A stretch of 64,000 bases of DNA from Heptranchias perlo (GCF_035084215.1 NC_090359.1:13950001-14014000); one strand, 5' to 3'; shown: positions 940 to 54,654, counted from the stretch's first letter. The notes: generated from the sequence alone by a model not told the origin. Program-made: numbers and translations.

Positions 940-1460
940 GCCTGTTTTGAAACATCAACAGACCTTCTGCGACCTGAATGATTCTGTGTTTCATGTCTAC
1001 AAGGAGTGTGAGAGGTTGCAGCCCCTGTTCCACTATTTAAAGGGGCTGCTCCACAACTTCTGGCTGCGCTTCAGTCCCACGCTCCTCATCTTTGGCCACC
1101 GGGTGAGGAGGAGGGCGGGTCAGTCAGAGGATCTCCTCGTGGGCCTGTCCAAGGTGGCCATCCACAGGTCCAGGTTAGACGGGGCCCGTGGGGGCGGTCG
1201 CTCCAACTGTCGGCCTCTCTTCCCCGGATTTCTCCGTGCCTGGGTGGCCCTGGAGATGGAGCACGCGGTGTCTGCCGGTTCGCTTGGGGCTTTCCGCGAC
1301 CGGGGGGCACCGCAGGGGCTGGAGTGCATCCTGGACCGATATAATAAAATTTAAATTTGACGCTTATTTTGGGTTTTTTGGTTTTTCTGCACAGGAACAC
1401 ACCCGAAACCCCGCTTCTTGTGAAAGGGGGGCCTAAAAACACAAAAAAAAGAAAAAAAAG
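940..1460 (+). mobile_element. 5'-truncated Tx1-clade non-LTR retrotransposon (ORF2 C-terminus, 3' UTR, A-rich tail)
   Basis: ORF 947..1354 (ESVFH-like..CERLQPLF..FSPTLLIFG..GLECILD) matches the C-terminus of ORF2 at 17649..20855; ends in ggggggcctaaaaacac plus an A-tail. Confidence 0.9.
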
Positions 1461-2057
1461 TCAAGCGTCACTCTGACTGCACTTCCAGTAAACACTTCAG
1501 AACTGAGCTGAGTGGAGGTCTGAGCAGAGCAAAACGACAGCCCTTGCCTGCCTCCTGAATCCGGGAGAAGGCAGAAAAAAAAACCATCAGTGATTCCCAG
1601 ACTATTGAGGACCAACAGCTGTTAAAATATCAGACACGGAGTTACAGGAATGTTTTAAGGGGGCCCAGAAATAGTTAAAAATGAGAATTAACCCCACAGA
1701 TGCTGTAGGCGGGGCTCGATTATTGGTCCGGTCCGGTGCAAACTAATATCCAGTCGCTAATTCACAGCCCTTCCTCCGGACAATTACATTTCGGGTCAGA
1801 CTCCCTGAGGATGTGTTTAAAAAATGATCTGAATACAGGAACATGTTTTGATAATGTTACTGTCTGTTGCTTTTGCTCATTTTTTGTCGGCTGCTGTTAA
1901 ATTTAATTTTGGTATAACTTTTGACAACAAATGTGTTTAAAGGAGATGCCTTTGGCCCTGTTGCTGAGTCCCTTTGGTAAATTGAGGTGATAATTTTGAT
2001 CTGGAATTAAGTTGTGATGTTGGGAAGTCAGTTACCGCTTCACTTCAGCCGTTTTCC

Positions 2058-4428
2058 TCATTTGACCAATTTACCAATTAGAGTAAACGGATATTTAATC
2101 ACATTGAGCAGCTCCTCTCTGAACTTACTCTGGGTCACTGTGTAAATGGCCGTGTTCGTACAGGAACTCAGAAGCTGAAGCAGAATTCCCACTTGTTCGA
2201 AGGTTGGGAAAGGGTTATAGAAAGATCGGCGGTTAAAGCCGCCTGAAATTCGATAATATAAAAAATATACGACCGTTGTCATCCAGAGCAGGATAAAACT
2301 GCCGGATATGGCAAAAAGTAAAACGATGGACCTTCTGCGGTTCTTCATCTCAGGGTCCTTGTCATTCTCACCATTGCTGAGGTCCCGGAGGCTCCTTCGG
2401 GCCCGACTGGCCACTAAAATGCGTCTGACGGTGAGAGCATTAAACAATAAAATCAAACAGAATGGAAGCAACGGGGTTAACAGCTGTTCAATCCAAGAAA
2501 ATGCGATCCATGTGGGTAGAATATAAAACTGTGATGATACAAGACAACCCCGTGGTATATTGTTAACAGTACGGTAATGAATATACACGAAGGGCCGGGG
2601 AATGTTCTTTAAACCGAACAGCGCGCTCAAAGTCACGATAATCACAAGTGAAGTTTTCTCGGTGCAATATTTTGTTTTCAGCTTCTGACAACTAATGGCT
2701 ACAAAACGATCAAAGGTAAAAGCGACCGTTAACCAAACAGAACTGTCTGTGGCAGCAGGAGCCAGGAAGAGAATGAATCTGCAAACAGGAGTGTAGAGCA
2801 GGAAAGTGTCCCCCCAATAAAGATGAGCAATCCGATATAAGATCACATTACAGGCAATCACCAGGAGATCCGCCGTCGCCATGGCCACCAGGTAGCGAGT
2901 GATACATTTGGAGAGACCGCACTTTCCACGGGACAGGATCACAATCGCCAGCAAGTTCACTGAGAGAAAGAGAGAGACAGAAACAGTGAAATCACTAACC
3001 GGGCTGATCAATGAGCTCTCAGTTTAACCGATGTACATGGGCTGTGATTGTGTTTATTTATTGGTTTTTCCCCTTGGCTTCTGCCTCCTGTTCCGAAGGA
3101 GCAGCTCATTCTGGGAGGTTCCTTTCGGGTGACGGTGGCCCCGGGATCCCTCACCCGACAGCTGAGTCCTCACTTGTGATCCTTGAGATTAAGTTTATTT
3201 TGTCGATTCCGACACTGGGAGGTCCGCGGGGCAGGACGTCACCAACTATGAAAGTGAAAGGCGACAAGACGAGTTAAATCAGGAAATACAGACAAGGTGA
3301 CTCTAGATTTGGTTTAAATCGTAATGCGGGGGAGAAACCTAATGCCTTGACCCACACAATACCAGAGACTTTGATTTTAGAAAATACATTGAAAACACGA
3401 GCCTGGTATTGAGTTGCTGCCCGTCATCTTTCAGTAATTAATTAGATGAGGTTTCCAGTGCAGTATTGTGAATGGATCATGACACAATATGTCAAGGAAT
3501 TTAATTCTGTAACGTGCTCCAGTTATAACCAGGTCCAGTCTTTATATCTCAGCACAAGGCGTGAGAAAAACAAAGGACAGTCGGATCCTCGGAATAAGAG
3601 ATCGATCCCAGGAGCCGCGCGGAATAAGAACAAATCACCGCCAACTCTCACTCATGGTCTCCAGCTCATCCCCCTCCCGAACCAGTGTCAAGACTGGTTT
3701 CCCCACTCTCCACAATAACACACATGGACTGAAGTATACAGTCATCGTCATTCAACTAGTCCAAACAATACTTTAAACATCAAATACATCAAAAGTCCTG
3801 TGAAGCCATTTTGCTGAAATATAATTATGATCTGAGAGGAACATTTGACGGGAACACAAGATTGTACCTTCGAGTGAGGAGGACGGTTTCTGTCACATGT
3901 TTTATTTATCTGATGCGTATTCCGTTTGTTCCCTGTCCTTCTATCCTGAAGACACTGACTCATGCCGGGATACACAGCCGCAATCTGCTCTCCGGAACCC
4001 CAGGCGATCGTTCCTCGGGAAACACGACAATCTCACCCGGTCCTTCCTCACCCGATCTCCACAACAGGCGCACTTTCCACCAGGAGGCAGTGGATTACAC
4101 TCAGGACTGTGCGCCCTGCCTGTTTGACCCCTGCCTGGCCGGGGAGCACCAAGGACACATTTGGACCCCAGACTCGACAGTTCAGCACAGAGCGAGGGTG
4201 AGTTACTCGGTGCATTGACCAATGGGACAAGGATGGAAGTTTTAACTGTATCACAAAACGGTGAAGAATAACATTCCACATTTACCAGGCTCAGAGCACA
4301 AACAGCAACATAGTTAAACATTCTGTTATTTACACCGTACGTGCTGATAATGACTTACCAGGTACTCCAATTGCTGCCAGAACAGGATAATAAATGAATT
4401 CTATCTCCGTAAATCGCGACAAACGCAT
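2058..4428 (-). CDS. Class A orphan GPCR, GPR139/GPR142-like; 2 exons (4428-4359, 2959-2058), 323 aa
   Basis: Exon 1 MRLSRFTEIEFIYYPVLAAIGVP with GTAAGT donor and phase-1 acceptor ctttctctcAG; exon 2 has LVAMATADLL, FTFDRFVAI and SSCTNTAIY with 7 hydrophobic segments overall; total 972 nt in frame. Confidence 0.9.
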
Positions 4429-7394: not shown

Positions 7395-7928
7395 GGATAA
7401 AGTATCACATAATAGACTTGTTTTAAAAATTGAAGCCCATGGGATTAAACGGACAATGGCAGCGTGGATATAAAATTGGCTCAGGAGCAGAAAACAGAGA
7501 GTAGAGGTGAACGGTTGTTTTTCAGACTGGAGGCAAGTACACAGTGGTGTCCCCCAGGGCTCGGTATTGGGACCACTGCTCTTTTTGATATATATTAATG
7601 ACCGGGACTTGGGAGTACAGGGTATAATTTCAAAGTTTTCAGATGACACGAAACTCAGAAATGTAATAAACAATGTGGAGGACAGTAACAGACTTCAGGA
7701 GGACAGAGACAGACTGGTGAAATGGGCAGAAACATGGCAGATGAAATTTACTGCAGAGAATTGTGAAGTGATACATTTTGGTAGGAAGATTGAGGAGAGA
7801 CAATATAAACTAAATGGAACAATTTTAAATGGAGTGGATGAATAGAGAGACCTGGGGGTGTCGTTACACAAATCTTTGAAGGTGGCAGGACAAGTTGAGA
7901 AGGCTGTTAAGTAAGCAAATGGGGCCCT
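7395..7928 (+). mobile_element. CR1 LINE reverse-transcriptase fragment
   Basis: ORF 7507..7845: [36 protein letters not shown]. Confidence 0.93.
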
Positions 7929-7959
7929 GAAAGACATCCAATCGTTTCAAAACAGCGAC

Positions 7960-8850
7960 TTTTTTTTCTTTTTCTTTTTTTCTTCTTTTTTGTGTGTTTT
8001 TAGGCTCCCCTTTTATAAGAAGGGGGGTTTAGGGTTTGTTTATGTGCAAAAACACCCAAAGAAAACCAAAAACCAGTGTCAAATTAAGATTTTATTATTT
8101 TTGTCCAGAATGCACTCCAGCCCCTGCAGTGCCCACCGGTCGGGGAAACCGGGGAGTAAGTGAACTCCAGCTCCCCAACTCACCCGGCACCGTGCCCAGA
8201 GACCGGGAGAAGGGGCTCCCTCCACCCACACCGCCACCAACCGACCTGGCAGGTGAGACGTTTTTATTAAAACCGTCCACTAGGTCGAGCAGGTCCTGGG
8301 AGATGTCGAGCCGCGAGCGGGCGAATTCAGCCTCATCGGCCTCGCCCACCCCGGCAACCAGGACGCCCGACCCGGTGAACTGTATACTCTCCTCCGTGCC
8401 CGGATCCGCGACCCCCCTCATAGGCAGGGTCTCCCCATCCCCCCCCGGGAGGCACGGACTCGGTCTCCTCCCCCCGAGTGGTGGACGACTCCCGCCGATG
8501 GTGTGAAATGGAGGGTGGGGCCCCAGGATCCGCGTCAGGCGCCAACTCCCCTTCCACGGGGGGCCGTCCCTTTGCAGGGTTCCAGTCCGCTTCCAGGGAG
8601 TGGCGCCTTTTTTTCTTTCCGGAGGCTCGCGGAGGGAGGGTCTGCTGGGGCCCCCTCCTCCGCTCCCTCCTGACCAACGATCTGCCCGGCCTCCGTCGCG
8701 ACCACGAGATGTAGATCGGCCGCGGTCACGATCGCAGCCTCGGGCTCACTCGATTGTTCAGCATCCCGGGGACCAGCCTCCAGATGTTTGATTTTCCTCC
8801 CTGCCTTTTTTCCGCGAGAGTGCCCTCCTTCCCCCCCGGCGGAGGCCTTG
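7960..8850 (-). mobile_element. Internally deleted Tx1 copy: mid-ORF1 segment (8146-8850) fused directly to the 3' end and tail (7960-8145)
   Basis: ORF 8095..8421 matches ORF1 (FTGSGVL..SQDLLDLV); junction ccaccggtc|ggggaaacc shows microhomology; T-rich tail at 7960-8000. Confidence 0.88.
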
Positions 8851-9164
8851 TGTTGTTTTTTTTATTCTTCGAGTGTGTTCATGTGCAGTAAACAATAAAC
8901 CCAGAATATGTGTCATAATAATTTTTTTCCCTTGTGTTTTCGGCCCTCTTTCATAAGAAGGGGGGGTTTGGGTGGTTTTTTTTGTCGACTGGAAGTTCAG
9001 TCAGAATTAGGCTTTTTTTCCCCCTTTTTCCTTGTGTGTTTTTAGGCCCCCCTTTTATAAGTAGTGGGGGGGGGGTTCAGGGTGTGTTCATGTGCAATAA
9101 ACCAAAAAACCCAAAATAAGTGTCAAATAATAATTTTATTATTTCGGTCCAGGATGCACTCCAG
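8851..9164 (-). mobile_element. String of short Tx1 3'-UTR and 5'-end fragments separated by oligo(T) runs
   Basis: Pieces at ~8866-8920, 8928-8975, 8984-9012 and 9013-9164, each bounded by T-runs; they contain the ggcccccc-ttttataag-gggg 3' motif or the actggaagttcagtcag 5' motif. Confidence 0.8.
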
Positions 9165-9180
9165 TTTCGTCTAGTTTTCT

Positions 9181-9240
9181 CGTTTAGCCTCATCTGGGAC
9201 AATTGGAGTCAGTTGACTGCAGGTTGTGTATAAAAGGTGC
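9181..9240 (+). promoter_or_regulatory. ZP3-like proximal promoter: three E-boxes and a TATA box
   Basis: CATCTG 9191, CAATTG 9200, CAGTTG 9210, TATAAAA 9229-9235, ATG at 9280; E-boxes are the known FIGLA-type sites of ZP promoters. Confidence 0.65.
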
Positions 9241-9279
9241 TGGTTGGTGGGTAAAGTGATAGTTGAGTTGTTTGGTATC

Positions 9280-12089
9280 ATGGGGGATTTTGTGGTGAGA
9301 GGTTTGTTCCCGGTGCTGGTGTTAGTTGGAGTGGTTTGTTACTCTGACATTTGGCAACAGTTTAGAGGGCAGAGATTTCCATGGAGAAGAGTAAAACCCA
9401 CCCCTGTGCCCCAGAGAGTCCCTTCCCCTGTGCCTCCCTTTGGTTCCCATTTCAGTGTGTCTGAGGGGAGAAGTCTGTCCCCACTGCAGACTGTGATGGT
9501 GCAGTGTGGAGAGCAGAACCTGCTGGTGAGGGTAGACATGGATTTATTTAGAACCAGGCACCTGATTAAAGCTGCTGACCTGACCTTGGGGACAGCAGGT
9601 TGTCGGCCAACTGGGATCCACTCTCAGAACCACACTGTCCTCTTTGACTATGGGCTCCATGAATGTGGCAGCAGATTGCAGGTAATGTGATTCCTCAACT
9701 CTTGCTCCAATTTCACTGTGTAGATTACTGCCCACTCAGAACTCATTAACATCGGGTGAAACTCCAGCCACTGAGGAGATCCCTGAATGAAATCTGTGTA
9801 TAAATTCTTGCCCACTGTTAAATATCACCCTGTGTGAAACTACTTCTTTATGTTGACATGTCAATCTTAGCTTTATATTTAAAAAGAACTTCAAATTGTC
9901 ACTGAGGGACTGCATCTTTCTTAAATGGGTCATTACTACTCTAACTCTGAGATTCAACTCTATTGGCCTTGAACCTTCACCTACATTTCTCCAAACCACT
10001 CTGTTCTTTTGTGCCTCAATTGATTTATCTTTTCTGTGCCTTCCTGTGGATATTCAGGCCTGTTGCCTCAACTTGTGGTCAATGAATGTTCAGTGTGGAA
10101 GTTCCTGTTGAGACTTCTCTTGAAAGATGAAACAAGTGGAATAATAATTGGGATACAATGTATTAAAGGGGAACTCCACTTTTGGTTATTACACCTGCCA
10201 ATCCCCTTGATTCCATGGATACAGGTGAGGTTTTAAAGTGATGTTGTGTTTTGTGCTCCATATCAGGGGTAACTTGAAGCCCCTTAAGGTGAAAGCTCTA
10301 TTCTATATGGGAAAGAATGCTCATCAAATCTGGCAGTGCCAATCATTTCAGGGTTTCTGACTGCAGGCCTGAAGTCCCCTGTAATACAAGGTGGACTGAG
10401 CAGAGTAACAGAGGCTGCTCCAGGCAACTTCAACCAATGGTGGAGCTGCTTCAATCATGTGTGATTTGAGGAGCAGCTAAAACCCCTCAAACTGCTGTTT
10501 AACAGGGCAGGAAAATGACCAGAAATAGCTCTTGTCCAATAAGACCAGCTCTTCATTCCTTAAGCTGATGTCTTTCAGATGGCTGGAGATTTCCTGGTCT
10601 ATACCACCCACCTGAACCATACCCCAAATGCTCGTGGATCTGTCATTGTGAGAACTAATGGAGTAGTCATTCCCATTGAGTGCCACTATTTTAGGTAAGA
10701 ATCTTTACTCTATTGCAAATGAGGTCTACAGGAGGTGCAGTTCTCTGAAGTTGTCCTGAAATTACACGCCTGTCCTTCCAGGAAGGGCAATGTGAGCAGT
10801 GACCCTATCAAGCCCACCTGGATCCCATTCAGCTCGACCAAGTCTGGAGAAGGGCTTCTGTCATTCTCACTGTGTCTTATGAATGGTATGTGATGTGTGG
10901 ATGGGGAGTGCTTTTCTGTCGTCTCCCACTGGGAGTTACACCCACTGTCTCCAACCCTTGTCCTCTTGTACTTCAGATGACTGGCTTACAGAGCGCACCT
11001 CGACTGTCTACTACCTGGGTGACCTCATTCACATTGAGGCCTCTGTTTCGATGACCAACCACATGCCCTTGAAACTCTACATTGACAGCTGTGCAGCTAC
11101 ATTGAGCCCAGGCAAGGATTCCACCCCAAGATACAACATCATTGACTACCATGGGTAAGGAGCTCTCTGCCTATTCCAGCTGGTTATGTCCCAAAGGTTC
11201 ACTTAATTCACTTTGTCTGTTTTTTTAATCTTTCTTCAGTTGCCTCCTGGACAGCAAAGCTGAGGACTCCTTTTCAACCTTTGTGTTGCCAAGAGGTGAA
11301 CGTGAGCTGGACAAACTCCAGTTTGATCTGGATGCATTCCGCTTCTTTGGAGATGACCGTTCCCTGGTAAGAGGAAGCCAAACATTGGGTTCCCCATGTT
11401 GGGAGGAGGTCACGAAATAACAACTTGTATTGAATGTGTTCCTCAGATTTTCATCACCTGTCACCTGAAAGTTGCTGCAGTGGATCGGAGAGATTCCATG
11501 AACAAAGCTTGTACTTTCCAGAATATGTAAGTTCCCTCTCTCACTCAGGGATGTGTTGTATTAAAGGGTGATGGACAACCTGGTTGATAAACTGATTCTC
11601 TGGTTTAGCTCGACCCCATTGGAAGAATTGACCAATGACGTGTGCGCCTGTTGTCATCTGGGCAACTGCAGTGCGAGGAGGGAATTCTGACTTGATTCCA
11701 GAGGAAGGAGGGATCTTGTGTATCTGGACCTGGTAGGACATTGATCCTCTCTGTGTTGGTGGTCACCCTTTACCCTCTCTAACTGGAATGTTTGATATTG
11801 CAGGGAGTGATGCTGAATTGAAGTGGGAGGGTGAAGCCTCACTTGGACCCCTGGTCATTCTGGATCCTGAAGTGTTAGAGCTGGCAACTGAGCCCCTTAA
11901 TGATGTTGAGCAAAGGATGCAGGAGAGGTCTCCAGGTGGTGAGTTGGCGGACTGCTGGTTTCCATTTTCCCCTCAATATTTCCTTCACTCACTGACCATT
12001 GGTTTCTTCTTCCGTTTTAGGTGTGGAGTCTGAGGTGGTCCTGATCCTGATCCTGGCCCTGACTGTGACCGCTGTCTCTGATCTCTGCT
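9280..12089 (+). pseudogene. zp3: ZP3-like egg-coat glycoprotein, copy 1, disrupted (exons 9280-9681, 10579-10694, 10782-10885, 10977-11154, 11240-11366, 11447-11526, 11609-~11732, ~11803-11937, 12021-12089)
   Basis: Collinear with the intact copy at 42004 in exons and introns; CGA>TGA stop at 11688-11690, 2-nt insertion ~11718, last exon cut by a Tx1 tail at ~12089. Confidence 0.88.
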
Positions 12090-12982
12090 TTTTTTTCTTA
12101 GGCCCCCCTTTTATAATTAGTGGGGGTTCAGGGTGTGTTTGTGCAGAAAACCGAAAACCAAAAACCAGTGTCAAATTAAGATTTTATTATTTTTGTCCAG
12201 GATGCTCTCCAGCCCCTGCAGTGCCCATCGGCGGAGATGGTGTCGCCATATTCCATCGAGCTACACCCACCCCAAGTCTCAGGCCGACTAATAACAAAGG
12301 CCTTGCAAAAGAAAACCTCCTCTCCCCAATTCCCACTGTGTTTGGAGAGGGGCTCCTTTGCAGGATTTTGTAAAAAAGAATATCCGTGATAGTGGGAGGG
12401 ATGGTCGAATGGGAAGGAGGGAGTCTGCAGGGGTGGGCTGCTGCAGAAGTGGGTGGAAGAGGGGCGGGGTTGCACCTTAACAGGTGGATCTTCTGGTGGG
12501 CAGGGGGAGGAGATGTCTTCCCCTAGACAGCTGGAGCTGCCCAGTCCTCCACAGATTGAAAAGTAACTTCACCCAGGCAGCTCCAGCTGTCCTGGGCCAG
12601 ACACTGGGGGGGAAACCCCCTGTTCTGTATGATCTTTCCTCCCCCTACCTTCAGTTGGTCACACTGCACCGCACCGACCTCCTCTTCCTCCCTCTGTTGG
12701 ATGGTATCGGTCAGCAGCAGTACACCCCTCACAGTGAATGGTGGTCTTCTTCTTCCTCCTTCCTCCCTGTTGGTTGTTTGTTCCTCTCCTTCTCCTTCTC
12801 CTTCTCCTGGATTCAGAGGTATACAAGCGAGGGCTGGTACTTTTCACCCTGCTCTCCACCCAGAGCTTTAACTCTGACCTCTGCTCTACTCAGCAGTATT
12901 AACTGGCAAGTTCAGTCAGGCTGATTCCTGGATGGATTGATGGTCTGTCTGAAAGACATCCAATCGTATCCCAACAGTGACT
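12090..12982 (-). mobile_element. Bipartite non-autonomous Tx1 derivative (5' UTR + ORF1 start codon fused to 3' end), ~0.9 kb
   Basis: 12230-12982 aligns with the 5' UTRs at 16830-17400 and 23570-24331; 12090-12230 is the 3' end with tail; junction gcccatcgg|cggagatggtgtcgccat. Confidence 0.85.
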
Positions 12983-13261
12983 CCTTATTTTTTCTTTTAG
13001 AAATTTATGAAATAGGACAATGGAAGTGATTGAACGAAAGGAGCATCCTAAAGACATTGAGTTGGATCAAAAACAGTTTTTTACTATTTTCACCACTCCG
13101 CTCAGCTCAGGAGTGTGGGATGGAAGAGCAGCCGGGGGTTTTATCAGCTACTCTTTTTCTGATGAGTCTGAAAGACATCCAATCGCATCAAAGCAGTGAC
13201 CTTTTTGCTGTTTTTAGCAGCCAGGATTTTTTCGCGACTTTTTTCCATTCCCAACAGCGAC
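12983..13261 (-). repeat. Mosaic of short Tx1 5'-end remnants separated by oligo(T)
   Basis: gaaagacatccaatcg..cagtgac at 13170-13200, cccaacagcgac at 13250-13261, and a 24-mer at 13110-13133 shared with 34123-34146. Confidence 0.65.
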
Positions 13262-16200
13262 ATTTTTTAGGCCCCCCTTTTAAAAGGAGGGGGATTTCGG
13301 GTGTCTTTTATGTGCAAAAATCCCAAAGAAAAACCAAAACCAGTTTCAAATTATAATTTTATTTTCCTTGTCCAGGATACACTCCAGTCCCTGCGGTGCC
13401 CACCGGTCGCGGAAAGCCTCAAGCGTACCGGCAGACACCGCGTGCTCCATCTCCAGGGCCACCCGGGCGCGAAGCATTCCGTGGAAGAGAGGCAGACAGT
13501 CCGAGCGACCGCCCCCACGGGCCGCAAGCAACCTGGACCTGTGGATGGCCACCTTGGACAGGCCCACGAGGACGTCCGCCGGCCTGCCCGCCCCCCTCCT
13601 CACCAGGCGGCCAAAGATCAGGAGCGTGGGACTGAATTGCAGCCAGAACCTGAGGAGCAGCCCCTCCAAATAATCACAGGGGCTGCAGTCTCCCACACCC
13701 CGTGAACAAATGAAACACGGACTCCTCCAGGCCGCAGAAATTGCAGGCGGCCTGGGAGTCCGTAAAATGGCGTAACCGCCGGTTGCACGCGACTGCTCCG
13801 TGCAACACTCTCCACCCCAGATGCCCGATGTAACACTGGAGGATCCCCAAGTAGAGAGCCCCCCCACTGGGGACCCCCGCCTCTGCCGGATGGCAGGCCA
13901 GGGCGTGTCCGGGCGAGAGACGAGGGCGAGGAAGTGGAGTGTGTGCAGGAGCAGCCCGTACAGGAAATACCTCCGTGCGGAGTGAAAAGGCACGGAGGGA
14001 ATTTCCCAGACAGCTCAAGTTGTGAGGCGCAGCCTCCCGAGCCAGATTCAGCGGAGCGTCCAGCCGGTCGGCGTCCTCCGGGCTGACCTTTGGCAGGTCC
14101 TCCCACAAAACTCTGCGCGCTTCCTCACTGGACGGATCAGGAGAGAACAGAGCCTCGTAGTAGGATCGAGCCCGGGCCCTGACTCCCTCCGGGTCCGAGA
14201 CGAGGGACCCGTCGTCGGCCAGCAGCGTAAGGAGATGCTTTTCCAGCGAGGTCCAGTTGCAGGTCCCTCAGAGCGTCCTTCTTCTCTTCGTACACCTGCC
14301 GCAGGACCGGAGCGGTCCCTCGCCTCGAGGGTACGGTTAAAATCCCCCCCGAGGATAATGCACTCGCCGGCGTCGACGGAGTTCAGGTAAGTGGACACTT
14401 CTTCAAAGAAGCTCACTTGCTCGGCTCCGGACCAGGGGGCGTACACGTTCACCAGGTGAAGCGGCACGTCCCCGTGGCGAAGGGCTACGTGGAGCAAGCG
14501 GCCCGGCACCGGCTCCTTGACCCCCAAGATCTCCGGCTGAAAAGTCGGGGCCAACAAGATGGCCACCCCGCTCGAAACGCTGGCGAGGTGACTCAAGGAG
14601 ACCCCCCCTCCCCATTCCAGGATCCACGTGGCCTCGTCTCCCGGAACGGTGTGGGTTTCCTGCAGAAAGCACACCGCATACTTCCCGTCCCGCAGGACCG
14701 AGAACTTGTCAAATCTACGGCGGGCGTCTCTGCCGCCGTTGATGTTGAGGCTGGCTATGGTTATCTCCATGGCAAGAGCACAGCGCAACCTACTTAAACC
14801 TAATGCGCGGAGGGAGCGGGGCCGCTAGTCGACCTCCTCTCCCCCCAAGAGCCCGGTGAGGAGGGATCTGAGCCGGCGCAACCCGACCCCGCCGCCGTCC
14901 TCCTCCGCGGCCACGGACGCGACGGCGACCCGGACCGAGCGGATTAGATGCACCGGCTCCGACCAACGGTCGAGGGCCAGCCGGACGCCATCGCGACGAT
15001 GGGTCCAACCGGACACAAAATCCCGGAGTTCCTCAACGGGGATGAGGGGAGACTCGGTGTCGGGCACGAGGGTGTCCGCCGCCGCCTCACTGGCGGCGAA
15101 CTCTAAATCCTCCCCAGTGCCCACCACCGAGTCCCCGACCTCCTCCGGGCCATCGTCGCCCGCGGCCGACCCACTCCCCGCACAGGGTGCGGAGAACGGG
15201 ACGGCCGCGCCGGCCGGCCCCGCCTCCGCCACGATCCCACCCCCAGGATCGTCGGCAGAGGATTCCTCCCCGGGCTCCACCGGGGGGTCCGGGTCAGAGG
15301 GCGGCTCCGGGCGAGGACCCTCCCCAGCCTCCGAGCGGTGGTAAACGGGCACCCGGATATAATGGGAAACCGGGGAACCCGGGGAGAACATATATTCCAG
15401 CTCTCCAACCTCCCCCGGCTCCGTGCCCAGAGACTGGGAGAAGGGGGTCTCCCCACCCACACCGCCACCGACCGACCCGGCCCGTGACATTTTCGTGTTA
15501 AAACCCGCCACCAGGTCGAGCAGGTCCTGGGAGAGGTTGAGCCGAGGGCAGACGAATTCGGCCTCGCCCGCTCCGGCACCCAGGACCCCCGACCCGGTGA
15601 ACGGGAAGCTCGCGTCGGCGCACGAATCCGCGGCCCCCCCCTTTCGGCAGGGTCTCTCCATCCCCCCCCGGGAGGCACGGGCACGATCTCCTCCCCCCAA
15701 GAGGTGGATGACCCCCGCTGGCGGTGGGAAATGGAGGGTGGGGTCGCAGGATCCGCTGCCGGCGCCGACGCCGATTCCCTTTCCGCGGGGGGCCGTCCCT
15801 TGGCAGGGTTCCCCTCCGCTTCCAGGGAGCGGCGCCTTTTCTGCCTTCAGGAGGGTGGCGGAGGGAGGGCGAGCCCCATGTCTGCTGGGGCCCCCCCCTC
15901 CGCTCCCTCCTGAATACCCGCCAGCACGGGCCCTGCCGCGACCGCGAGTTGCCGTTTGGCCGCGGTCACGACCACGGCCTCGGGCTGGCTGGAAGGCTTT
16001 CCAACCCGGGGACCAGCCTCCTGATGTTTACTTTTCTTCCGCGCCTTCTTAGGGCGAGGGTTCCCTCCCTCTCCCCCGGCGGAGGCCTCGTCGGCACCCT
16101 CCGCCCGCGCAGTTGACTCTCCCGACGCGGGGGCGGGTTTGGGGGGAGGAGCGGTGGCGGCGCCAGCCTCGGCCGCCGGAGCTGCTTTGGCGGCCAGGGA

Positions 16201-17552
16201 GACGGGGCAGTTCTTCCTCAGGTGCCCCACCTCCTTGCAGGCATGGCACCGCCCACCCTCTGCCGTCCAGAAGACGTGGTAGGCGGTCCCCTCGTGAATG
16301 ATACTAAAACCCCCCTCTGTCACCTCCTCCCGCACCAGCTTAACAAACGCCTGGCGCCGGAAGGAGTACACGTGACGGAGGCTGTTCTCCCTGAGGCCGA
16401 GCGTCAGTGGTGTCAACCCTGACCTCACCTCCCCCAGTTGACGTAGATGGGGGAGGAGGAGCTCGACCGGTAGAAAGGGCGGGACGTTCGATAACACCAC
16501 CCGCTGCGCGGTGGCCTCCAGCGGGTCCACCGGCAGGAAGGTCCCGCCAACCGTGAGCCCCTTATTTAGGGCCAGGGACACCGCCCGCTCGGTCCTCAGG
16601 AAGAACACTGCCCTCCCATACATTTTCGAGGCCGCGACGATGGCCGAGGGGCCGACAACCTCGGCCATGGCCTTCACGCAGGCCTCGATGGTCATATTGG
16701 GGTGAGCATAACATTTCACCCCATGGAGCCTCGTCAAGAGGCGAAATGGCGCCGGCCCAGCAGGAGCGTCCGAAATCGAAGGCGCGGCCGCCGTGGCGAC
16801 CCCCGCATACGTCCTGCTGGGACCGGGGACCGGCGAAGATGGCGTCGCCATGGTCTCAGGCCGGTGGATGGCAAAAAATGGCCTTGTGTTCAATGTAAAT
16901 AGAAACCGCCTCTCCCCTGTATCCCAGTACAAGTGTGGGAGAGGGGCTCCTTTGTCCGATATTTGGTTCTGTCTTTGTCTGAAGCTACTGCTCAAAAGAG
17001 CACGAGAGCAAGAGAGGGAGGGATGGCACAGGGAAAACGGAGGGAGTCCGCAGGGGTGGGCCGCTGGGGAAGTCGGCCAAAGAGGGGCGGGGTGGCACCT
17101 TCTTCTGGCTTCTTTCTTCCGGTGGGCGTGGAGGGGAGGAGATGTCTTCTCCTAGACAGCCGGAGCTGACTCGGCTCAGTCCTCCACAGATGACAAAAGT
17201 AAGGAACTTCACCCAGGCAGCTCCAGCTGTCCCGGGCCAGACACTTGGGGGCGGAATCCCCTGGTCGAAAAAGATCTTCTTACCTCCCCCGACCTTCAGT
17301 CGGCCACCCCGATCGCCGTCGACCTCCTCTTCCTGCTGTTTAAGGCTGACAGCAGCAGCAGCACACCCCTCGCAGCTGCCTGATGTTTTTCGCCTCCTTC
17401 TTTCTTTCTCCCTCCTTCCCTCTCGATGGCTCTCCTCTCCTCTGTGCTCTGCACCTGCTTGCAGCACTTCCGCAAGGCCACACTCGATTGGCCGGCAAGT
17501 GGCTCGCCAATACCGACCGGCCCCAGCACTCTCCTCACAGGCTGGGAAGTTG
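13262..17552 (-). mobile_element. Tx1 element A: 5' UTR, frameshifted ORF1 (ATG 16851), ORF2 (ATG 14770) with endonuclease N-half but RT deleted, 3' end
   Basis: ORF1 CCHC knuckle CHACKEVGHLRKNC; APE motifs SLNING, LQETH, GGDFN; jumps at ~14300 and ~14040 remove the rest of the endonuclease and the whole RT. Confidence 0.93.
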
Positions 17553-17648
17553 TTTTTTTTTTAAATTAGGCCCCCCTTTTATAAGAAGGTGGGGTGTGGG
17601 GTGTGCTTAACAACTAAAAACCAAACAAACCAAAACGAAGAGTTCAAA

Positions 17649-20600
17649 TCAAAATTTTATTATCCTCGTCCAGGATGCACTCCAGCCCCTGCAGTGCCCC
17701 CCGGTCACGGAAAGCCTCAAGCGTACCGGCAGACACCGCGGAGCAACCCGCGAAAGAGGCAGACAGGCCGAGCGACCGCCCCCACGGACCGCGATCATCC
17801 TAGACCTGCGGATGGCCACCTTGGACAGGCCCAGGAGCAGGCCCACGAGGACGTCCACCGACCTGCCCGCCCCTCTCCTCACCGGGCGGCCAAAGATCAG
17901 GAGCGTGGGACTGAAGTGCAGCCAGAACTTGAGGAGCAGCCCCTCCAAATAATGGAACAGGGGCTGCAGTCTCTCACACCCAGTGTACAAATGAAAAACG
18001 GACTCCTCCAGGCCGCAGAAATCACAAGCGGCCTGGGGGTCCGTGAAATGGCGTAACCGCCGGTTGCACGCGACTGCTCCGTGCGCCACCCTCCACCCCA
18101 GATCCCCAAAGTAACACGGGAGGACCCCTGTATAGAGAGCCTCCCACTGGGGACCCCCGTCTCCGCCGGACGGCAGGATGGCACGCCAGGGCGTGTCCGG
18201 GCGAGAGACGAGGGCGAGGAAGTGGATGGTGTGCAGGAGCAGCCCGTACAGGAAATCCCTCCGCGCGGTGTGAAACGGCACGGAGGGAACTTCCGAGAGA
18301 CAGCTCAAGTTGTGAGGCGCGGCCCTCTGAGGGAGGTTCCGGGGTTTGGCGCCGAGGAGGAATTCAGTCCGAACAGGGGTCAGGTCGGACGGGATGGCTC
18401 CGCACGCTTGAGCCGCCTCCACACCCCGAGTGGAGTCAGGGCCGAGCGCCGATTTCAACGCCTGGATGGCGGCGGCCGCGTCCCCGGCACGCCACGAGGA
18501 CATGCGAGCGGCGAGCGCCCACGGCTCGAGCCAACCCGACCCACCGCCATCCAGGACGTCCCTGACTCTGGTCACCCGACCGGCCACAGCCCTCCGCTCC
18601 GTCAGCCACGAGTGGCCGAAGCCGACATCGCGGAGGAACGGATTCCCGAGCAGCGGCTCCTGCAGGACGGCCGCTACCCCCGACGGGTGAGAGCTCCGAC
18701 CGGAGGCGACCATGTTCCAGACCCTGAGCAGATTCTGGTACAAGACAGGCAGCTCCTGCAAAGACATGCGGCCGTCCACCAGCGAGACGAACAGGAGCTG
18801 CGTGTCGTAGTTCAGGCCGTGCAGCTGGCGGAAAAAGTACGTCGCCAGCGCACGCCATCTAAGAGGACGCTCATCGTACAGGTATCGCCGCAGCGTCCGA
18901 AGGCGGAAAGTTGCCACCTGGGTGCGGACGCACACCAGCCCCTGACCGCCCTCCCTAAGCGGGAGACTCAGGACTGCGGCAGCGACCCAGTGTATCCCTT
19001 TGGCCCAGAAGAAGTCGACGAACTTCCTCTGAATCTTGGCGACAAAATCAGGGGGGGGGGTCAAAGTGACCAATCTGTACCACAACATGGCGGCCACCAG
19101 CTGGTTTATGACCAGCACACGACCCCTGTAGGATAACACTCGGAGCAGTCCTGTCCAGCGCGCCAGGCGAGCGGCGACTTTGGCCTCCAGCTCTTCCCAG
19201 TTCGCCGGCCAGGCTTCCTCGGCAGGGCCGAGGTAGACTCCCAGGTACCGGAGGTGCGTGGTACTCCAGGCGAAAGCCCTGAGCTCCTCCGGCATGGAGT
19301 CCACCCGCCACTGACCCACCAGGAGTCCGGAACATTTCTCCCAGTTGATTCTTGCGGAGGACACGGCAGAGTAGACCTCTTGGCACTCGCGCATCCTCCG
19401 CAAGTCAAGGGGATCGGTGACCACGAGGAGCACGTCGTCGGCGTAAGCCGAAAGGACGACCTCCACGCCCGGCTCGCGCAGAGCCAGTCCCGACAACCTC
19501 TTTCGCAAGAGGCGCAGGAAAGGCTCCACGCAGACGGTGTATAATTGGCCGGACATGGGGCACCCCTGACGCACTCCTCTCCCGAAGCGAAGGGGCGCCG
19601 TCAAGGATCCGTGAACCTTAATCAGACACTCCGCGGCGGCGTACAGAAGTCGGATCCGGGCGACGAAATGCGACCCGAACCCGAAAGCGCGCAGAGTCCC
19701 GAATAGATACTCGTGATCCACCCTGTCGAACGCCTTCTCCTGATCCAAGGTAAGGAAGGCGACCGACAGACCAGCCCTCTGGGAATGGTGGATCAGGTCC
19801 CGGACCAGGTGGATGTTATCGTGGATCTTCCGACCCGGGACCGTGTAGGACTGGTCGGGGTGGATCATGTGGGCCAGCACGGTGCCCAGGCGAGCAGACA
19901 TCGCCTTGGCAAAGACCTTATAATCCGTGCTGAGGAGGGAGACCGGGCGCCAGTTTTTAAGGTTGCGGAGATCCCCCTTCTTAGGCAGCAGGACCACGAC
20001 CGCCCTGCGCCACGAAAGGGGCATCTCCCCGGTCGCCAGACATTCCCCCAGGACCCGCGCGTAGTCGCCCCCCAGGACGTCCCAGAAGGCCCTGAGGAAC
20101 TCCACGGTCAGCCCATCCAGCCCCGGGGACTTGCCCCTGGAGAGCTGGTGGAGGGCGCCGGTCAGCTCCGCCAAACTGAGCGGAGCGTCCAGACTGTCGG
20201 CGTCCTCCGGGCCGACCTTCGGCAGGTCCTCCCACAAAACTCTGCGCGCCTCCTCGCTGGACGGATCCGGAGAGAACAGAGCCTCGTAGAAAGATCGAGC
20301 CCGGGCCCTGACTCCCTCCGGGTCCGAGACGAGGGACCCGTCGTCGGCCAGCAGCGTAAGGAGCTGCTTACGAGCCCCCCGCCGCTTTTCCAGCGAGTAG
20401 AAGAAGGGAGAGCCGCGGTCCAGGTCCCGCAGGAGCTGGAGCCGCGACCTCACGTACGCTCCTCGGGACCCGACCAGTTGCAGGTCCCTCAGAGCGTCCT
20501 TCCTCTCCTCGTACACCTGCCGCAGGGCCGGATCCTCGGCGGCCTGACCGAGACGGGACTCCAGGCCAAGCACCTCCTGCTCCAACCGCCTGACCTCGGA

Positions 20601-21523
20601 CTCCCGCCTCTTAGTCGACCCCCTCGCGTACTCTTGACAGAAGAGGCGGACGTGAGCCTTGCCCACGTCCCACCAGAGCCTCAAGGAGGAGAAGCCTCCC
20701 CGCTTCCCTCTCCAGTCGCTCCAGAACAGACGGAACGAGTCCCGGAACCGCGCGTCCTCCAGCAGCCGGTTGTTAAAGTGCCAGTACGCGGACCCCGACC
20801 GGGCGCGGAGCAGAGCGAGCTCCATCCACACCAGGTGGTGGTCCGAGCACGACACCGGCCGGATGGAGGCCGACGGGATGCAGGAGGCGTACGCCCGCGA
20901 AACGTACAGGCGGTCGATTCTGGAGCTTCCCCCCTCCGGCCCTCACAAAGGTGAACTGGCCGGAGTCGGGATGGAGATTCCGCCAGACGTCCACCAAGGC
21001 GAAGGACCCGACCAGGTCCCTCAACTTCTCCGCCGCCGTTCGGGCACGCGCGGGACCGGAGCGGTCCCTCGCCTCGAGGGTACGGTTAAAATCCCCCCCC
21101 CCGAGGATAATGCACTCGCCGGCGTCGACGGAGTTTAGGTAAGTAGACACTTCCTCAAAGAAGCTCACTTGCTCGGCTCCGGACCAGGGGGCGTACACGT
21201 TCACCAGGTGAAGCGGCACGTCCCCGTGGCGAAGGGCTACGTGGAGCAAGCGGCCCGGCACCGGCTCCTTGACCCCCAAGATCTCCGGCTGAAAAGTCGG
21301 GGCCAACAAGATGGCCACCCCGCTCGAAACGCTGGCGAGGTGACTCAAGTAGACCCCCCCCTCCCCATTCCAGGATCCACGTGGCCTCGTCTCCCGGAAC
21401 GGTGTGGGTTTCCTGCAGAAAGCACACCGCATACTTCCCGTCCCGAAGGACCGAGAACTTGTCAAATCTACGGCGGGCGTCTCTGCCGCCGTTGATGTTG
21501 AGGCTGGCTATGGTTATCTCCAT
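17649..21523 (-). CDS. Tx1 ORF2 endonuclease/reverse transcriptase, frameshifts at ~21355 and ~20935, small C-terminal deletion ~17738
   Basis: MEITIASLNING, SDHH, KSPGLDG, NWRPVSLL, DQEKAFD, GVRQGCPMSG, YADD, CDFCGLEESVFHLYTGC. Confidence 0.93.
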
Positions 21524-21552
21524 GGCAAGAGCACAGCGCAACCTACTTAAAC

Positions 21553-23594
21553 CTAATGCGCGGAGGGAGCGGGGCCGCTAGTCGACCGCCACTCCCTCAA
21601 GAGCCCGGTGAGGAGGGATCTGAGCCGGCGCAGCCTGACCCCGCCGCCGCCACCCTCCGCGGCCACGGACGCGACGGCGGCCAGCACCGAGCGGATTAAC
21701 TGCGCCGGCTCCGACCAACGGTCGAGGGCCAGCCGGACGCCATCGCGACGACGGCTCCAACCGGACGCAAAATCCCGGAGTTCCTCAACGGGGATGAGGG
21801 GAGACTCTGTGTCGGGCACGAGGGCGTCCACCACCTCACTGGTGGCGAACTCCAAATCCTCCCCAGTGCCCACCACCGAGTCCCCGTCCTCCTCCGGGTC
21901 ATCGTCGCCCGCGGCCGACCCACTCCCCGCACAGGGTGCGGAGAACGAGACGGCCGCGCCGGCCGGCCCCGCCTCCGCCACGATCCCACCCCCAGGATCG
22001 TCAGCAGAGGAGTCCTCCCCGGGCTCCACCGGGGGGTCCGGGTCAGAGGGTGGCTCCGGGCGAGGACCCTCCCCAGCCTCCGAGCGGTGAAAAACCGGCA
22101 CCCGGATATAAGGGGAACCCGGGGAAACCGGGGAGAACGTGTACTTAAGTTCTCCCACCTCCCCCGGCTCCGAGCCCAGAGACTGAGAGGAGGGGGTCCC
22201 CCCACCCACGTCGCCACCGACCGACCCGGCCCGTGAGATATTTTGATTAAAACCCACCACCAGGTCGAGCAGGTCCTGGGAGAGGTCGAGCCGGGGGCAG
22301 ACGAATTTGGCCGCAACGGCCTCGCCCACCCCGGCACCCAGGACGCCCGACCCGGTGAACAGGGTGGTATCTGGTAAAAGCGGATCCGCGACCCCCCCTA
22401 TCGGCGGGGTCTCTCCATCCCCCCCGGGAGGCACGGGCACGATCCCCTCCCCCCGAGAGGTAGATGACCCCCGCCGCTGTTCGGATGTCACGGGCGGGGC
22501 CGCAGGATCCGCGACCGGCACCGACTCCCCTTCCACGGGGGGCCGTCCCTTAGCAGGGAGCCCGTTCGCTTCCGGGGAGTGGCGCCTCTTTTTCTTCCAG
22601 GAGGGTCGCGGAGGGAGGGGGGACTCCATGTCTGCTGGGACCCCCACCTCCGCTCCCTCCTGATCACCCGCCAGCCCGGGCTCTGTCGCGACCGCGAGAT
22701 GTTGACTGGCCGCGGTCACGACCTCGGGCTGACTGAGATCTTCTCTGTCCCGGGGACCAGCCTCTAAATTCTTCCTCTTTCTCCGCACTTTCTTCTGGCG
22801 AGGGTTCCCCTCCTCCCCCCTGGCGGAGGCCTCGACGCCAACCTCCACCCGCGCAGTTGACTCTCCCGACGCGGGGGCGGGGTTGGGGGAGGAGCGGTGG
22901 CGGCGCCAGCCCCGGCCGCCGTAGCTGTTTTGGCGGCCTGAGAGGCGGGGCAGTTCCTCTTCAGGTGCCCCACCTCCTTACAGGCATGGCACCGCCCACC
23001 CTCTGCCGTCCAAAAGACGCGGTAAGGGGTCCCCTCATGGAGGGCGTTAAAGCCCCCCTCCGTAACCTCCTCCCGTGCCAGCTTGACGAATGCCTGGCGA
23101 CGGAAGGAGTAAACATGCCGGAGGCTGTTCTCCCTGAGTCCGAGCGGCAGCGGCGTTACCCCCGACCTCACCTCCCCCAGTTGACGTAGGTGGGGGAGGA
23201 GGAGCTCGTCCGACAGGAAAGGCGGGACGTTGGATAAAATGACCCGCTGCGCGGTGGCCTCCAGCGGGTCCACCGGCAGGAAGGTCCCGCCAACCGTGAG
23301 CCCCTTACTAAGGGCCAGGGACACCGCCCGCTCGGACCTCAGGAAGAACACCGCCCTCCCGTACATTTTCGAGGCCGCGACGATGGCCGAGGGGCCGACA
23401 ACCTCGGCCATGGCCTTTACGCAGGCCTCAATGGTCATGTTGGGGTGGGCGTAGCTCTTCACCCCATGCTTCCTCGTAATGAGGCGGAAAGGCGCCGGCC
23501 CAGCAGGAGCGGCACGAACTGTAGGAGCGGCCCCCGAGGTAACCGCCGCATACGTCCTGCTGGGTCCCGGCACCGGCGAAGATGATGAAGCCAT
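21553..23594 (-). CDS. Tx1 ORF1 nucleic-acid-binding protein (CCHC zinc knuckle), one frameshift at ~22880
   Basis: ORFs 22764..23594 and 21553..22848; MASSSSPV..HGVKSY..ASKMYGRAVFFL..LSNVPPF..CHACKEVGHLKRNC. Confidence 0.88.
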
Positions 23595-24336
23595 GACCTA
23601 AAGAGCCACACCCACCCCAAGTCTCGGGCCTACTGATGAATTTAGGCCTTTTTAAAAGAAGCCCTGAGGAAACCTCTCTCCCCGAATCCCAGAGCTTGGT
23701 TGGGAGAGGGGCCCCTTTGCTGGTTTTATTTTCCCCCAGAATATCCGGGAGAGCAAGAGAAGGTGGGAGGGATTAATGGTGGAATGGGAAGGAGGGAGTC
23801 TGCAGGGGTGGGCTGCTGCAGAAGTGGGTGGAAGAGGGGCGGGGTTGCACCTTAAAAGGTGGATCTTCTTCTGCCTGTCTTCCGGTGGGCAGGGGGAGGA
23901 GATGTCTTCCCCGAGACAGCTGGAGCTGCCTAGGCTCAGTCCTCCAAAGATTGAAAAAAGTAACTTCACCCAGGCAGCTCCAGCTGTCCTGGGCCAGACA
24001 CTTGGGGGAACCCCCTGTCCTCTAAGGTCTTCTTCCTCCCCCTACCTTCAGCCGACGCACCTCACTGCACCGACCTCCTCTTCCTCCCTCTGTTCGGTGT
24101 CGCAAACCAGCAGCAGCAGCAGCACAACCCCTCCCGGCTGCTGTTTGGTCGTATTCTTCTTCACCCTCCCTCCTTGTTGATGGTGGTTTCTCCTTCTCCT
24201 TCTCCTTGACTCAGAGGGACCCGGGCAAGGGCCTGCTCTCTCTGCTCTCTCTGCTCTCCACTCAGTGGCAGTTCAGCCACAAACACCTCCAATGCCGAGC
24301 TGGTGTGTCTCAAAGACAACCCAACAGAGATGTGAT

Positions 24337-39770: not shown

Positions 39771-41619
39771 TTTTTTTTTTTCTTTTTTTTTCACTTTCAG
39801 ATTTTTTTTTTTCCTTTTTTCTTTTTTTAAATTTTGTTAGGCCCCCCTTTTATAAGAAGGGGGTGTGGGGTGTGCTTAAATACTAAAACCAAACAAACCA
39901 AAACCAAGTGTTCAAATTAAAATTTTATTCTCCTCGTCCAGGATACACTCCAGCCCCTGCGGTGCCCACCGGTCGTGGAAAGCCTCGAGCGGACCGGCAG
40001 ACACCGCGTGCTCCATCTCCAGGGCCACCCGGGCGCGGAGCATTCCGCGGAAGAGAGGCAGACAGGCCGAGCGACCGCCCCCACGGACCACGATCATCCT
40101 AGACCTGTGGATGGCCACCTTGGACAGGCCCAGGAGCAGGCCCACGAGAACGTCCACCGACCTGCCCGCTCCCCTCCTCACCGGGCGGCCAAAGATCAGG
40201 AGCGTGGGACTGAAATGCAGCCAGAACTTGAGGAGCAGCCCCTTCAAATAATCAAACAGGGGCTGCAGTCTCGCACACCCAGTTCACAGATGGAACACGG
40301 ACTCCTCCAGGCCGCAGAAATCACAAGCGGCCTGGGTGTCCGTGAAATGGCGTCACCGCCGGTTGCACGCGACTGCTCCGTGCGCCACCCTCCACCCCAG
40401 ATCCCCGATGGAACACGGGAGGATCCCTGAGTAGAGAGTCCCCCACTGGGAACCCCCGTCTCCGCCGGACGGCAGGATGGTACGCCAGGGCGTGTCCGGC
40501 CGAGAGACGAGGGCGAGGAAGTGGATGGTGTGCAGGAGCAGCCCGTACAGGAAATCCCTCCGCGCGGTGTGAAACGGCACGGAGGGAATTTCCGAGAGAC
40601 GGCTCAAGTTGTGAGGCGCGGCCCCCCGAGGGAGGTTCCGGGGTTTGGCGCCGAGGAGGAACTCCGTCCGAACGGGGGTCAGGTCGGACGGGATGGCTCC
40701 GCACGCCTGAGCCGCCTCCACATCCCGAGTGGAGTCAGGGCCGAGCGCCGATTTCAACGCCTGGATGGCGATGGCCGCGTCCCCGGCACGCCACGAGGAC
40801 ATCCGTGCGGCGAGCGCCCACGGCTCCAACCAACCCGACCCACCGCCATCCAGGACGTCCCTGACTCTGGTCACCCGACCGGCCACGGCCCTCCGCACCG
40901 ACAGCCGCGAGTGGCCGAAGCCGATATCGCGGAGGAACGGATTCCCGAGCAGCGGCTCCTGCAGGACGGCCGCTACCCCTGACAGGTGAGAGCTCCGACC
41001 GGAGGCGACCATGTTCCAGACCCTGAGCAGATCCTGGTAAAAGACAGGCAGCTCCTGCAAAGACGTGCGGCCGCCCACCAGCGAGACGAACAGGAGCTGC
41101 GTGTCGTAGTTCAGGCCGTGCAGCTGGCGGAAAAAATACGTCGCCAGCGCACGCCATCTAAGAGGACGCTCAACGTACAGGTATCGCCGCAGCGTCCGAA
41201 GGCGGAAAGTTGCCACCTGGGTGCGGACGCACTCCAGCCCCTGACCGCCCTCCCTAAGCGGGAGACTCAGGACCGCGGCAGCGACCCAGTGTATCCCTCT
41301 GGCCCAGAAGAAGTCGACGAACTTCCTCTGAATCTTGGCGACAAACTCGGGGGGTGGGGTCAAAGTGACCAACCGGTACCACAACATGGCGGCCACCAGC
41401 TGGTTTATGAACAGCAGTCGACCCCTGTAGGATAACACTCGGAGCAGTCCTGTCCAGCGCGCCAGGCGAGCGGCGACCTTGGCCTCCAGCTCTTCCCAGT
41501 TCACCGGCCAGGCTTCCTCAGCAGGGCCGAGGTAGACTCCCAGGTACCGGAGGTGCGTGGTACTCCAGGCGAAAGGCCTGAGCTCCTCCGGCAGGGAGTC
41601 AACCCGCCACTGACCCACC
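39771..41619 (-). mobile_element. 5'-truncated Tx1 copy (last ~1.8 kb of ORF2 plus tail)
   Basis: Aligns with 17553-19321; T-tail 39771-39830. Confidence 0.95.
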
Positions 41620-41652
41620 AGAAAACTAGACGAAACTGGAGTGCATCCTGGA

Positions 41653-41959
41653 TATCCACAGGTCCAGGATGCTCGCGGTCCGTGGGGGCGGGCGCTCGGA
41701 CTGTCTGCCTCTCTTTCGCGGGATGCTCCGCGCCCGGGTGGCCCTGGAGATGGAGCACGCGGTGTCTGCCGGTACGCTTGAGGCTTTCCACGACCGGTGG
41801 GCACCGCAGGGGCTGGAGTGCATCCTGGACGAGGAAAATAAAATTTTAATTTGATGCCTGGTTTCGTTTTATTTGGTTTTTAGTACTTAAGCACACCCCA
41901 CACCCCCCCCCTTCTTATAAAAGGGGGGCCTAAAAAACACAAAAAAAAAGAAAAAAAAG
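41653..41959 (+). mobile_element. 5'-truncated Tx1 3' end, head-to-head with the preceding copy; tail ends at the ZP3 TATA position
   Basis: ORF 41669..41854 RARVALEMEH..GLECILDEENKILI; tail aaaaaaaag|ggtgctgg. Confidence 0.93.
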
Positions 41960-42003
41960 GGTGCTGGTTGATGGGTAAAGTGATAGTTGAGTTGTTTGGT
42001 ATC

Positions 42004-54290: not shown

Positions 54291-54654
54291 CCCTGCGTCT
54301 GTCTTTAAGGGACCACATTACTCTGAGTCACCTTCTTTCTCTTAATATACTTGTAAAAACCTTTAGTGTTGTCCTTGATATCCCTCACAAACTGGAGTTG
54401 GCAGCTGATATTGTGACTGAATTTAATCCATGTAAAGAGCGGAAAGAAAAGAACAATTTAATGTTAAAGTAAATCAATCAAATGCCATTAATGACAAATA
54501 TATTCAAATTAAATATAATCATCGTCTCAAAAATAGTCCTGTTGTATTCCAGTGACAGATTCTGGAATCTAATCAGCCGCGAGGAGATGTCGGACAGCTG
54601 CCCAGTGAGACTCGGCCTGTGATGGTTCCTCCCTTCCTCTGGGTAAGCACCTTG

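Follow-up and report, generated by a model that had tools for sequence, protein, structure and literature searches.

A Tx1-clade LINE of Heptranchias perlo clustered at the promoters of amplified egg genes, where it likely inserts preferentially and from which it is likely transcribed

The long interspersed elements (LINEs) so far known to seek particular targets do so in RNA-gene arrays, microsatellites, telomeres and other transposons, while the elements known to seek promoters are long terminal repeat (LTR) and DNA elements. Within the Tx1 clade, families with targets in transposons, small nuclear RNA genes and microsatellites have been described (PMC4494074); further context on the clade is given in PMC3747384. 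Here we analyze a 64-kb stretch of the 3.25-Gb genome of Heptranchias perlo (C38:13,950,001-14,014,000, hereafter the window), which carries two ZP3-like egg-coat genes, three ferritin genes, one G protein-coupled receptor (GPCR) gene and nine 3′ ends of a single Tx1-like LINE family. This family shares with Xenopus Tx1L, whose target is Tx1D, the reverse transcriptase (RT) clade, two open reading frames (ORFs), an APE endonuclease (EN) and insertion into multicopy DNA. Unlike Tx1L, which occupies one site in a DNA transposon, it is found in RNA polymerase II promoters of egg genes, at many positions, is mostly dispersed and has an EN loop three residues shorter. The sequence-specific families of the clade (Tx1L, Keno, Mutsu, Dewa, Kibi/Koshi) have one target position, whereas here there are many, in several unrelated promoters. 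It is probable that this LINE, whose copies cluster at promoters of amplified egg genes (ZP3, ZPB and ferritin), inserts there preferentially and is transcribed from them.

The positions of the A-rich tails were compared in four blocks of the ZP3/ferritin cluster (864 kb including the window, placed by hand in a motif-rich region), where junctions were grouped by eye and distinct classes were counted instead of copies. The 41 tails found there correspond to about 18 junction classes, 13 of which lie in promoter windows, defined as roughly –330 to +50 of the ZP3 or ferritin TATA and including nested inserts and the homologous ferritin-upstream site. These windows make up at most 4% of the non-element DNA of the cluster, giving a binomial p of 4e-15 for 13/18 and of 3e-10 if 10/18 are counted. 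The other classes fell in ZP3 gene bodies (two), in an element 5′ untranslated region (UTR; the class of the junction at 17553), in the 3′ end of another copy and beside a GPCR gene (one each). Moreover, the exact 3′ motif of the family reached 32 per Mb in these blocks versus a genome mean of 0.21, and on contig C49 an intact ZPB promoter was found with repeated snippets of A-tract plus CCAAT and three elements.

A preliminary description of this DNA had proposed that the family targets itself, reading a short motif next to several tails as the extreme 5′ end of the element. The motif was located at all of the positions concerned (24306-24330, 12946-12982, 7927-7959, 13166-13200 and 13250-13261), but it belongs to the ZP3 promoter. 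Its 18-mer has 143 exact genomic copies versus about 0.1 expected and 0 for a control, 95 of the 100 matches listed sit on C38:9.1-16.1 Mb, and 13 of the 30 motif loci inspected continue into an E-box-like site, a TATA and ZP3 exon 1. The uninterrupted promoter site is present in 74 exact genomic copies. Judged by these matches, the main motif comes from the host: it is the part of the multicopy ZP3 promoter that carries the CCAAT box, as anticipated by one alternative of the earlier account, a host repeat; its other alternative, a 3′ transduction, also applies, as the motif travels as a transduced tag and, in addition, as a captured 5′ leader. The match at the end of element B is a chimera, composed of a captured promoter fragment up to 24322 and a target-site duplication (TSD) of ferritin-upstream DNA at 24323-24342. 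In ZP3 copy 1, the promoter halves 7927-7959 and 9201-9240 flank a 1.2-kb insert. A second motif, at 12902-12919 and, as previously noticed, also just past the tails at 1460 and 9013, was seen in element-borne sequence only, and tails do land there; outside elements, a search pattern that was too tight returned two matches, both of them element 5′ ends, and a search for host sequence from which the inner A-type UTR could stem returned four, all element-borne or tags.

The ZP3-like, ferritin and GPCR genes form a multi-megabase array on C38 (about 9.1-17.9 Mb) in which at least 62 ZP3 promoter sites are intact, the ferritin genes being amplified alongside the egg-coat genes. Within it, at C38:13,929,400-13,930,500 (L148-L149), three tandem truncated 3′ ends of about 340 bp lie directly upstream of a ZP3 TATA.

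Among the nine tails of the window, one lies in place within an element 5′ UTR (17566), and not most of them within the first ~80 nt of another copy, as had been stated. Those at 1436 and 9042 adjoin short 5′-UTR tags closed by a second A-tract, those at 8000 and 13267 lie in ZP3 promoters and that at 41933 at a ZP3 TATA, those at 34178 and 39837 lie in ferritin-upstream sequence, and that at 12098, belonging to element C, interrupts the last exon of ZP3 copy 1. The tail of element B meets the 5′ UTR of element A at 17553, and C, A and B form a 12-kb array in one orientation, both as first described; the array lies on the minus strand. The features of the window that bear on the element are the following:

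965-1585, plus strand: truncated copy downstream of the GPCR gene, with a 5′-UTR tag closed by a second A-tract
7927-7959, plus strand: the half of the ZP3 copy-1 promoter that lies upstream and bears the CCAAT box, host DNA (match to the uninterrupted promoter of L053)
7960-9200, minus strand: Tx1 pieces, truncated and nested, that split the ZP3 promoter, their tails being at 8000 and 9042 (junctions shared with other blocks)
9201-12088, plus strand: ZP3-like gene copy 1, with proximal promoter, TATA at 9229-9235 and exons (Pfam ZP-N and ZP-C; GT..AG-spliced contigs; 95% copy at 41956-44807)
12089-12982, minus strand: element C, with an internal deletion that brings its 3′ end next to 5′ UTR; it starts with the ZP3-promoter fragment 12946-12982
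12998-13200, plus strand: remnant of a second ZP3-paralog promoter (host), target of the tail of A (alignment of 12998-13156 to the ZP3-type promoter of L273, followed by the CCAAT motif)
13201-13261, minus strand: stacked short promoter-like snippets with A-tracts between them, after the tail of A
13262-17552, minus strand: element A, a Tx1 copy with most of the RT deleted, whose 5′ UTR takes the tail of B
17553-24322, minus strand: element B, a full-length 6.8-kb Tx1 copy starting with a worn ZP3-promoter fragment
24323-24342, plus strand: 20-bp TSD made of ferritin-upstream sequence, some 230 bp upstream of the ferritin TATA (its partner lies past the tail in a sister copy, b13750 118867)
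24343-27376, plus strand: ferritin gene copy 1, TATA at 24566, divergent from B (Pfam Ferritin; spliced contigs)
34100-34335, minus strand: truncated copy tagged with ZP3-promoter sequence, situated upstream of ferritin copy 3
39790-41621, minus strand: truncated copy with its tail in ferritin-upstream-like DNA
41654-41959, plus strand: truncated copy with its tail adjoining ZP3 copy 2 right after the TATA position

In element B, both ORF1 (start at 23594, with a zinc knuckle) and ORF2 (EN and RT, 21507-17649) are interrupted. Each of the nine window junctions has one to three further copies at 95-99% identity in the four blocks, so that the local junctions, whose independence the proposal of self-targeting presupposed, recur throughout as segmental duplicates. 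A Rfam scan of the window gave no family at gathering score and no RNA gene as target, and a hammerhead-like reading of 13160-13185, made by eye, was dropped, as it has no GAAA core. The window also contains a single-exon rhodopsin-family GPCR gene (2058-3023, minus strand) that recurs throughout the cluster, minisatellites with 24-bp and 32-bp units (62-341 and 63127-63928) and, at 51925-58185, two inverted CR1-like RT remnants about 70% alike.

The 5′ ends of the element were characterized in 30 copies among the listed matches of a motif at the ORF1 start, which has 143 copies genome-wide, none of them on C1-C10, and 86 of the 100 matches listed on C38. Nine of the 30 lie in sense behind a ZP3 promoter plus about 75 bp of the gene, three antisense behind a ZP3 promoter and five antisense behind ferritin promoters; nine others, at a duplicated locus designated X, carry an A-type leader (ZPB match scored in eight), one follows another tail directly and three have other flanks. 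In total, 26/30 begin with or behind a ZP3 or ferritin promoter or a ZPB-derived leader. The A-type leader aligns to about 115 bp of the ZPB promoter, and a portion of the ZP3 motif opens the B- and C-type ends, also where these lie at ferritin loci or in ZP-free surroundings. At L296 the ZP3-promoter fragment stands in inverted orientation at the 5′ junction, suggesting that the captured fragment was carried as part of the element RNA. Promoter targeting and promoter borrowing by the element are, on this anatomy, strongly suggested.

ZP genes are, as a rule, expressed specifically in oocytes. Such oocyte-specific expression has been described in catfish (PMC13704971), and we infer that the ferritin copies of this cluster are expressed in oocytes as well. 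In four contig sets of a single sample, which we guess to be RNA, GT..AG-spliced ZP3 and ferritin joints were found, much deeper in set X2, and element contigs were present in all four. The junction between the ferritin promoter and element B was bridged by two low-depth contigs from the same presumed RNA.

The assignment to the Tx1 clade made in the preliminary description was confirmed with an intact natural copy from the same cluster. Its ORF2 shows 50% identity with Xenopus TX1 across 1294 aa (61% in the RT region), and an RT tree of 18 rows (16 hand-picked of the 120 matches listed, with a long CR1 outgroup and no L1 row) placed it in a seven-row clade including Xenopus TX1 with support of 100/100, the nearest row being a ray protein. 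Pfam recognized an APE endonuclease, an RT and a C-terminal zinc region in ORF2 and a CCHC knuckle in ORF1, the zf-RVT and zf-CCHC matches scoring below the curated cut-offs. By this homology, the family is a Tx1-clade non-LTR retrotransposon. In all 24 copies read, a hairpin loop of the EN is 8 residues long, the corresponding loop of Xenopus Tx1 and of three close relatives having 11, and this loop has been linked to target selectivity (PMC1950540); the shortened loop may therefore be fairly taken to imply a relaxed endonuclease specificity. The hairpin at the 3′ end folds no better than shuffled sequences (z –0.75 to +1.33; four copies).

The exact 3′ motif has 680 copies genome-wide, of which the first 71 listed, on C1-C3, were surveyed as dispersed copies. 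An A-rich tail together with a credible TSD of 12-19 bp, the hallmarks of target-primed reverse transcription (TPRT), was present in 49/71, and the 22 without such a TSD were set aside. The target sites of these 49 varied, none of them lying in an element 5′ end, contrary to what self-targeting predicts, and an AA before the TSD core was their sole shared feature. In 22/49, sequence tags lie between the tail and the TSD, each closed by a further A-tract; they derive from the ZPB promoter (5), ZP3 (4), ferritin-upstream DNA (2), locus X (7) and the element body (1), with 3 unmapped by script. Being inside the TSD, the tags moved together with the element, a pattern consistent with read-through past the 3′ end of source copies. 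Stacked tags occur as well: L100 carries a ZP3-promoter tag followed by a locus-X tag, and a copy on C32 has ZP3 tags and then its landing in locus X. In the context of the criterion of PMC4494074, that one kind of flank exceed 20%, this share is reached inside the cluster, and no class of the dispersed final flanks surveyed (71 of 680) exceeds it, the largest comprising 5/71.

The ZPB-type family, a second egg-coat family defined by trefoil plus ZP-N, has many of its promoters on C23, where 51 of the 100 promoter-motif matches listed are placed and 15 of the 16 loci read are its promoters; about 50 copies of this promoter (L226-L240) extend along ~30 Mb of that contig. Locus X (L241-L254 on C13, C32, C37 and C446; also L265 and L267) is a duplicated locus holding Tx1 arrays, which contains a 150-bp piece of ZP3 intron and lies near a satellite at C13; no host ORF was found beside the C13 array, and no host gene was identified. 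Among dispersed targets, a ~200-bp LTR-like repeat containing words of the E-box, CAAT and TATA kinds was the target in 5/71 (L005, L007, L066, L067, L095), and two more repeats were each a target twice (L002/L028, CCAAT-rich; L070/L085). On C33, far from the cluster, an inverted ferritin exon-1 fragment lies inside a rearranged Tx1 copy (L258); the tandem on that contig, whose second element is disrupted, may reflect either transduction or a self-insertion.

Head-to-tail arrays and non-random targeting, both proposed earlier, were upheld: arrays of two to three full-length copies exist on C38, C13, C32, C37, C446 and C49. Their spacers consist of 22-560 bp of host DNA with a variable start and a fixed 5′ junction at the end. 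ORF2 is about 97% identical between 5′ types and ORF1 about 87%, and one 3′ junction was found behind different 5′ types; together, these observations point to ectopic recombination that shuffles 5′ and 3′ flanks. Given this shuffling and the duplicated junctions, the C-A-B array is best read as a recombined, duplicated mosaic of ferritin promoter, B, A, ZP3-promoter remnant, C and ZP3 gene. The long spacers may reflect recombination, local re-insertion of an RNA that carries a leader and is joined at its 5′ end through homology, as in a model for R2 (PMC6895275), or long TSDs; the C37 spacers share locus-private variants, and a spacer-variant test of long TSD, donor leader and recombination gave mixed results.

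Taken together, these data suggest the following course. Copies appear to arrive by ordinary TPRT, leaving A-rich tails and TSDs at loosely defined AA-preceded sites, and the excess of distinct junctions at ZP3, ferritin and ZPB promoters would reflect a preference for accessible promoter chromatin over a fixed sequence. Near-full-length copies begin beside or with promoter pieces, antisense at the CCAAT region or in sense about 75 bp after the ZP3 TATA, and host promoters would drive them in oocytes. Dispersed copies with tags, some of them stacked, would record successive read-through from source copies at these loci. Ectopic recombination via the near-identical ORF2, together with segmental duplication, would extend and multiply the arrays, and repeated insertion plus recombination would build their head-to-tail order. 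A more ambitious version, in which the LINE actively seeks the most highly expressed oocyte-gene promoters, outsources its own promoter, makes 5′ UTRs from captured pieces, keeps its pedigree as stacked tags and provides a recombination substrate for the gene arrays, is offered tentatively, as possible rather than probable.

Several observations weigh against a promoter preference and promoter-driven transcription. The cluster junction classes are partly dependent through nesting and duplication, the blocks were hand-placed in a motif-rich region, and the density may have been raised by redundant gene arrays tolerating insertions. Most dispersed copies sit in unrelated DNA, where enrichment is modest and post hoc for CCAAT (15/49 vs 51/355, p 0.007) and E-box (22/49 vs 97/355, p 0.018) and absent for TATA and CpG, and the tags are biased towards loci that are transcribed. 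The start of element RNA in a host promoter is inferred from anatomy, and L268, a dispersed near-full-length copy, has no host leader, so that an internal promoter is possible. No one mechanism appears to account for the long spacers.

Some of these points would suit near-random insertion, with the pattern produced by source bias plus local re-insertion, tolerance in redundant arrays, and duplication and recombination. The duplication of all nine window junctions, the evident flank shuffling, the hundreds of dispersed copies elsewhere and the private variants of the C37 spacers agree with it. However, 13 of ~18 distinct classes in at most 4% of the DNA, the presence at promoters of short truncated copies unable to act as sources, and the exchange of tags between contigs (ZP3 tags before a locus-X landing, ZPB tags on C38) make this explanation unlikely, though it is the most serious competitor. 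Classical sequence-specific targeting, in which the EN would recognize a short sequence common to the ZP3, ZPB and ferritin promoters, gains from the sequence specificity of the Tx1L EN itself (PMC1950540) and from exact landing positions that recur with different tail types (ferritin +42, the ferritin-upstream site and ZPB at about –30); it appears very improbable, as landing points are spread over many positions on both strands with no common sequence, dispersed sites share nothing beyond the AA, and the EN loop is shortened.

Equally improbable is a true self-homing comparable to Zepp, with the EN or ribonucleoprotein recognizing the element's own 5′ end and arrays growing by nesting. The real arrays on six contigs, the new copies found repeatedly just upstream of old ones, and the tails in element-borne UTR (at 17553 and, at about +73 of a B-type UTR, in L283) with the tags at 1460 and 9013 are what it would predict, and this part of the earlier proposal stands. 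Nevertheless, the main motif belongs to a host promoter, the DNA between array copies is promoter or locus sequence that starts at differing points, none of the 49 dispersed copies with a TSD lies in an element 5′ end, and empty promoters are targeted too, so self-homing as a general rule is largely refuted. Self-insertions are real yet few, a minority that under the promoter preference favored here arises because element 5′ ends adjoin or contain the promoter target.

If this preference is true, a LINE in redundant oocyte-gene promoters gains germline expression and a low-cost niche together. The family would also offer a traceable case of the origin of new LINE 5′ UTRs, a matter unresolved for mammalian L1, and its tail tags would allow a direct reading of source loci and their order, while the elements seem to be driving rearrangements within a multi-megabase array of egg-coat genes. 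A literature search, with Repbase reports, subscription journals and supplements outside its scope, returned no description of this family or of a LINE targeting ZP promoters.

Mammalian L1 carries flanks along by 3′ transduction, as does this family. L1 has also acquired new 5′ leaders by 5′ UTR replacement (PMC5381506); unlike in L1, the leader donors here are identifiable host promoters that serve as landing sites as well. Among elements that prefer DNA upstream of protein-coding genes, Tf1, the P element, Mutator and mPing (PMC6719617) are LTR or DNA elements, and the section devoted to this preference names no LINE so disposed and none at amplified egg genes. R2 (PMC6895275) likewise exploits a highly transcribed multicopy array, and upstream target sequence at the 5′ end of its RNA could help 5′ joining, but it uses one ribosomal DNA site and a restriction-like endonuclease. 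Zepp and ZeppL (PMC8226300) are L1-like LINEs in tandem arrays; Zepp, as presented there, inserts into existing copies and is cluster-confined, whereas the present family has host promoter DNA as its target and many dispersed copies. Finally, the crocodilian Tx1-Mar and SINEU-3 (PMC4494074) share with this family a target preference, tandem copies around target sequence and a proposed reliance on flanking transcription. Their target is a Mariner transposon, while in Heptranchias perlo promoter or locus spacers of 22-560 bp separate the copies and promoter pieces become 5′ leaders.

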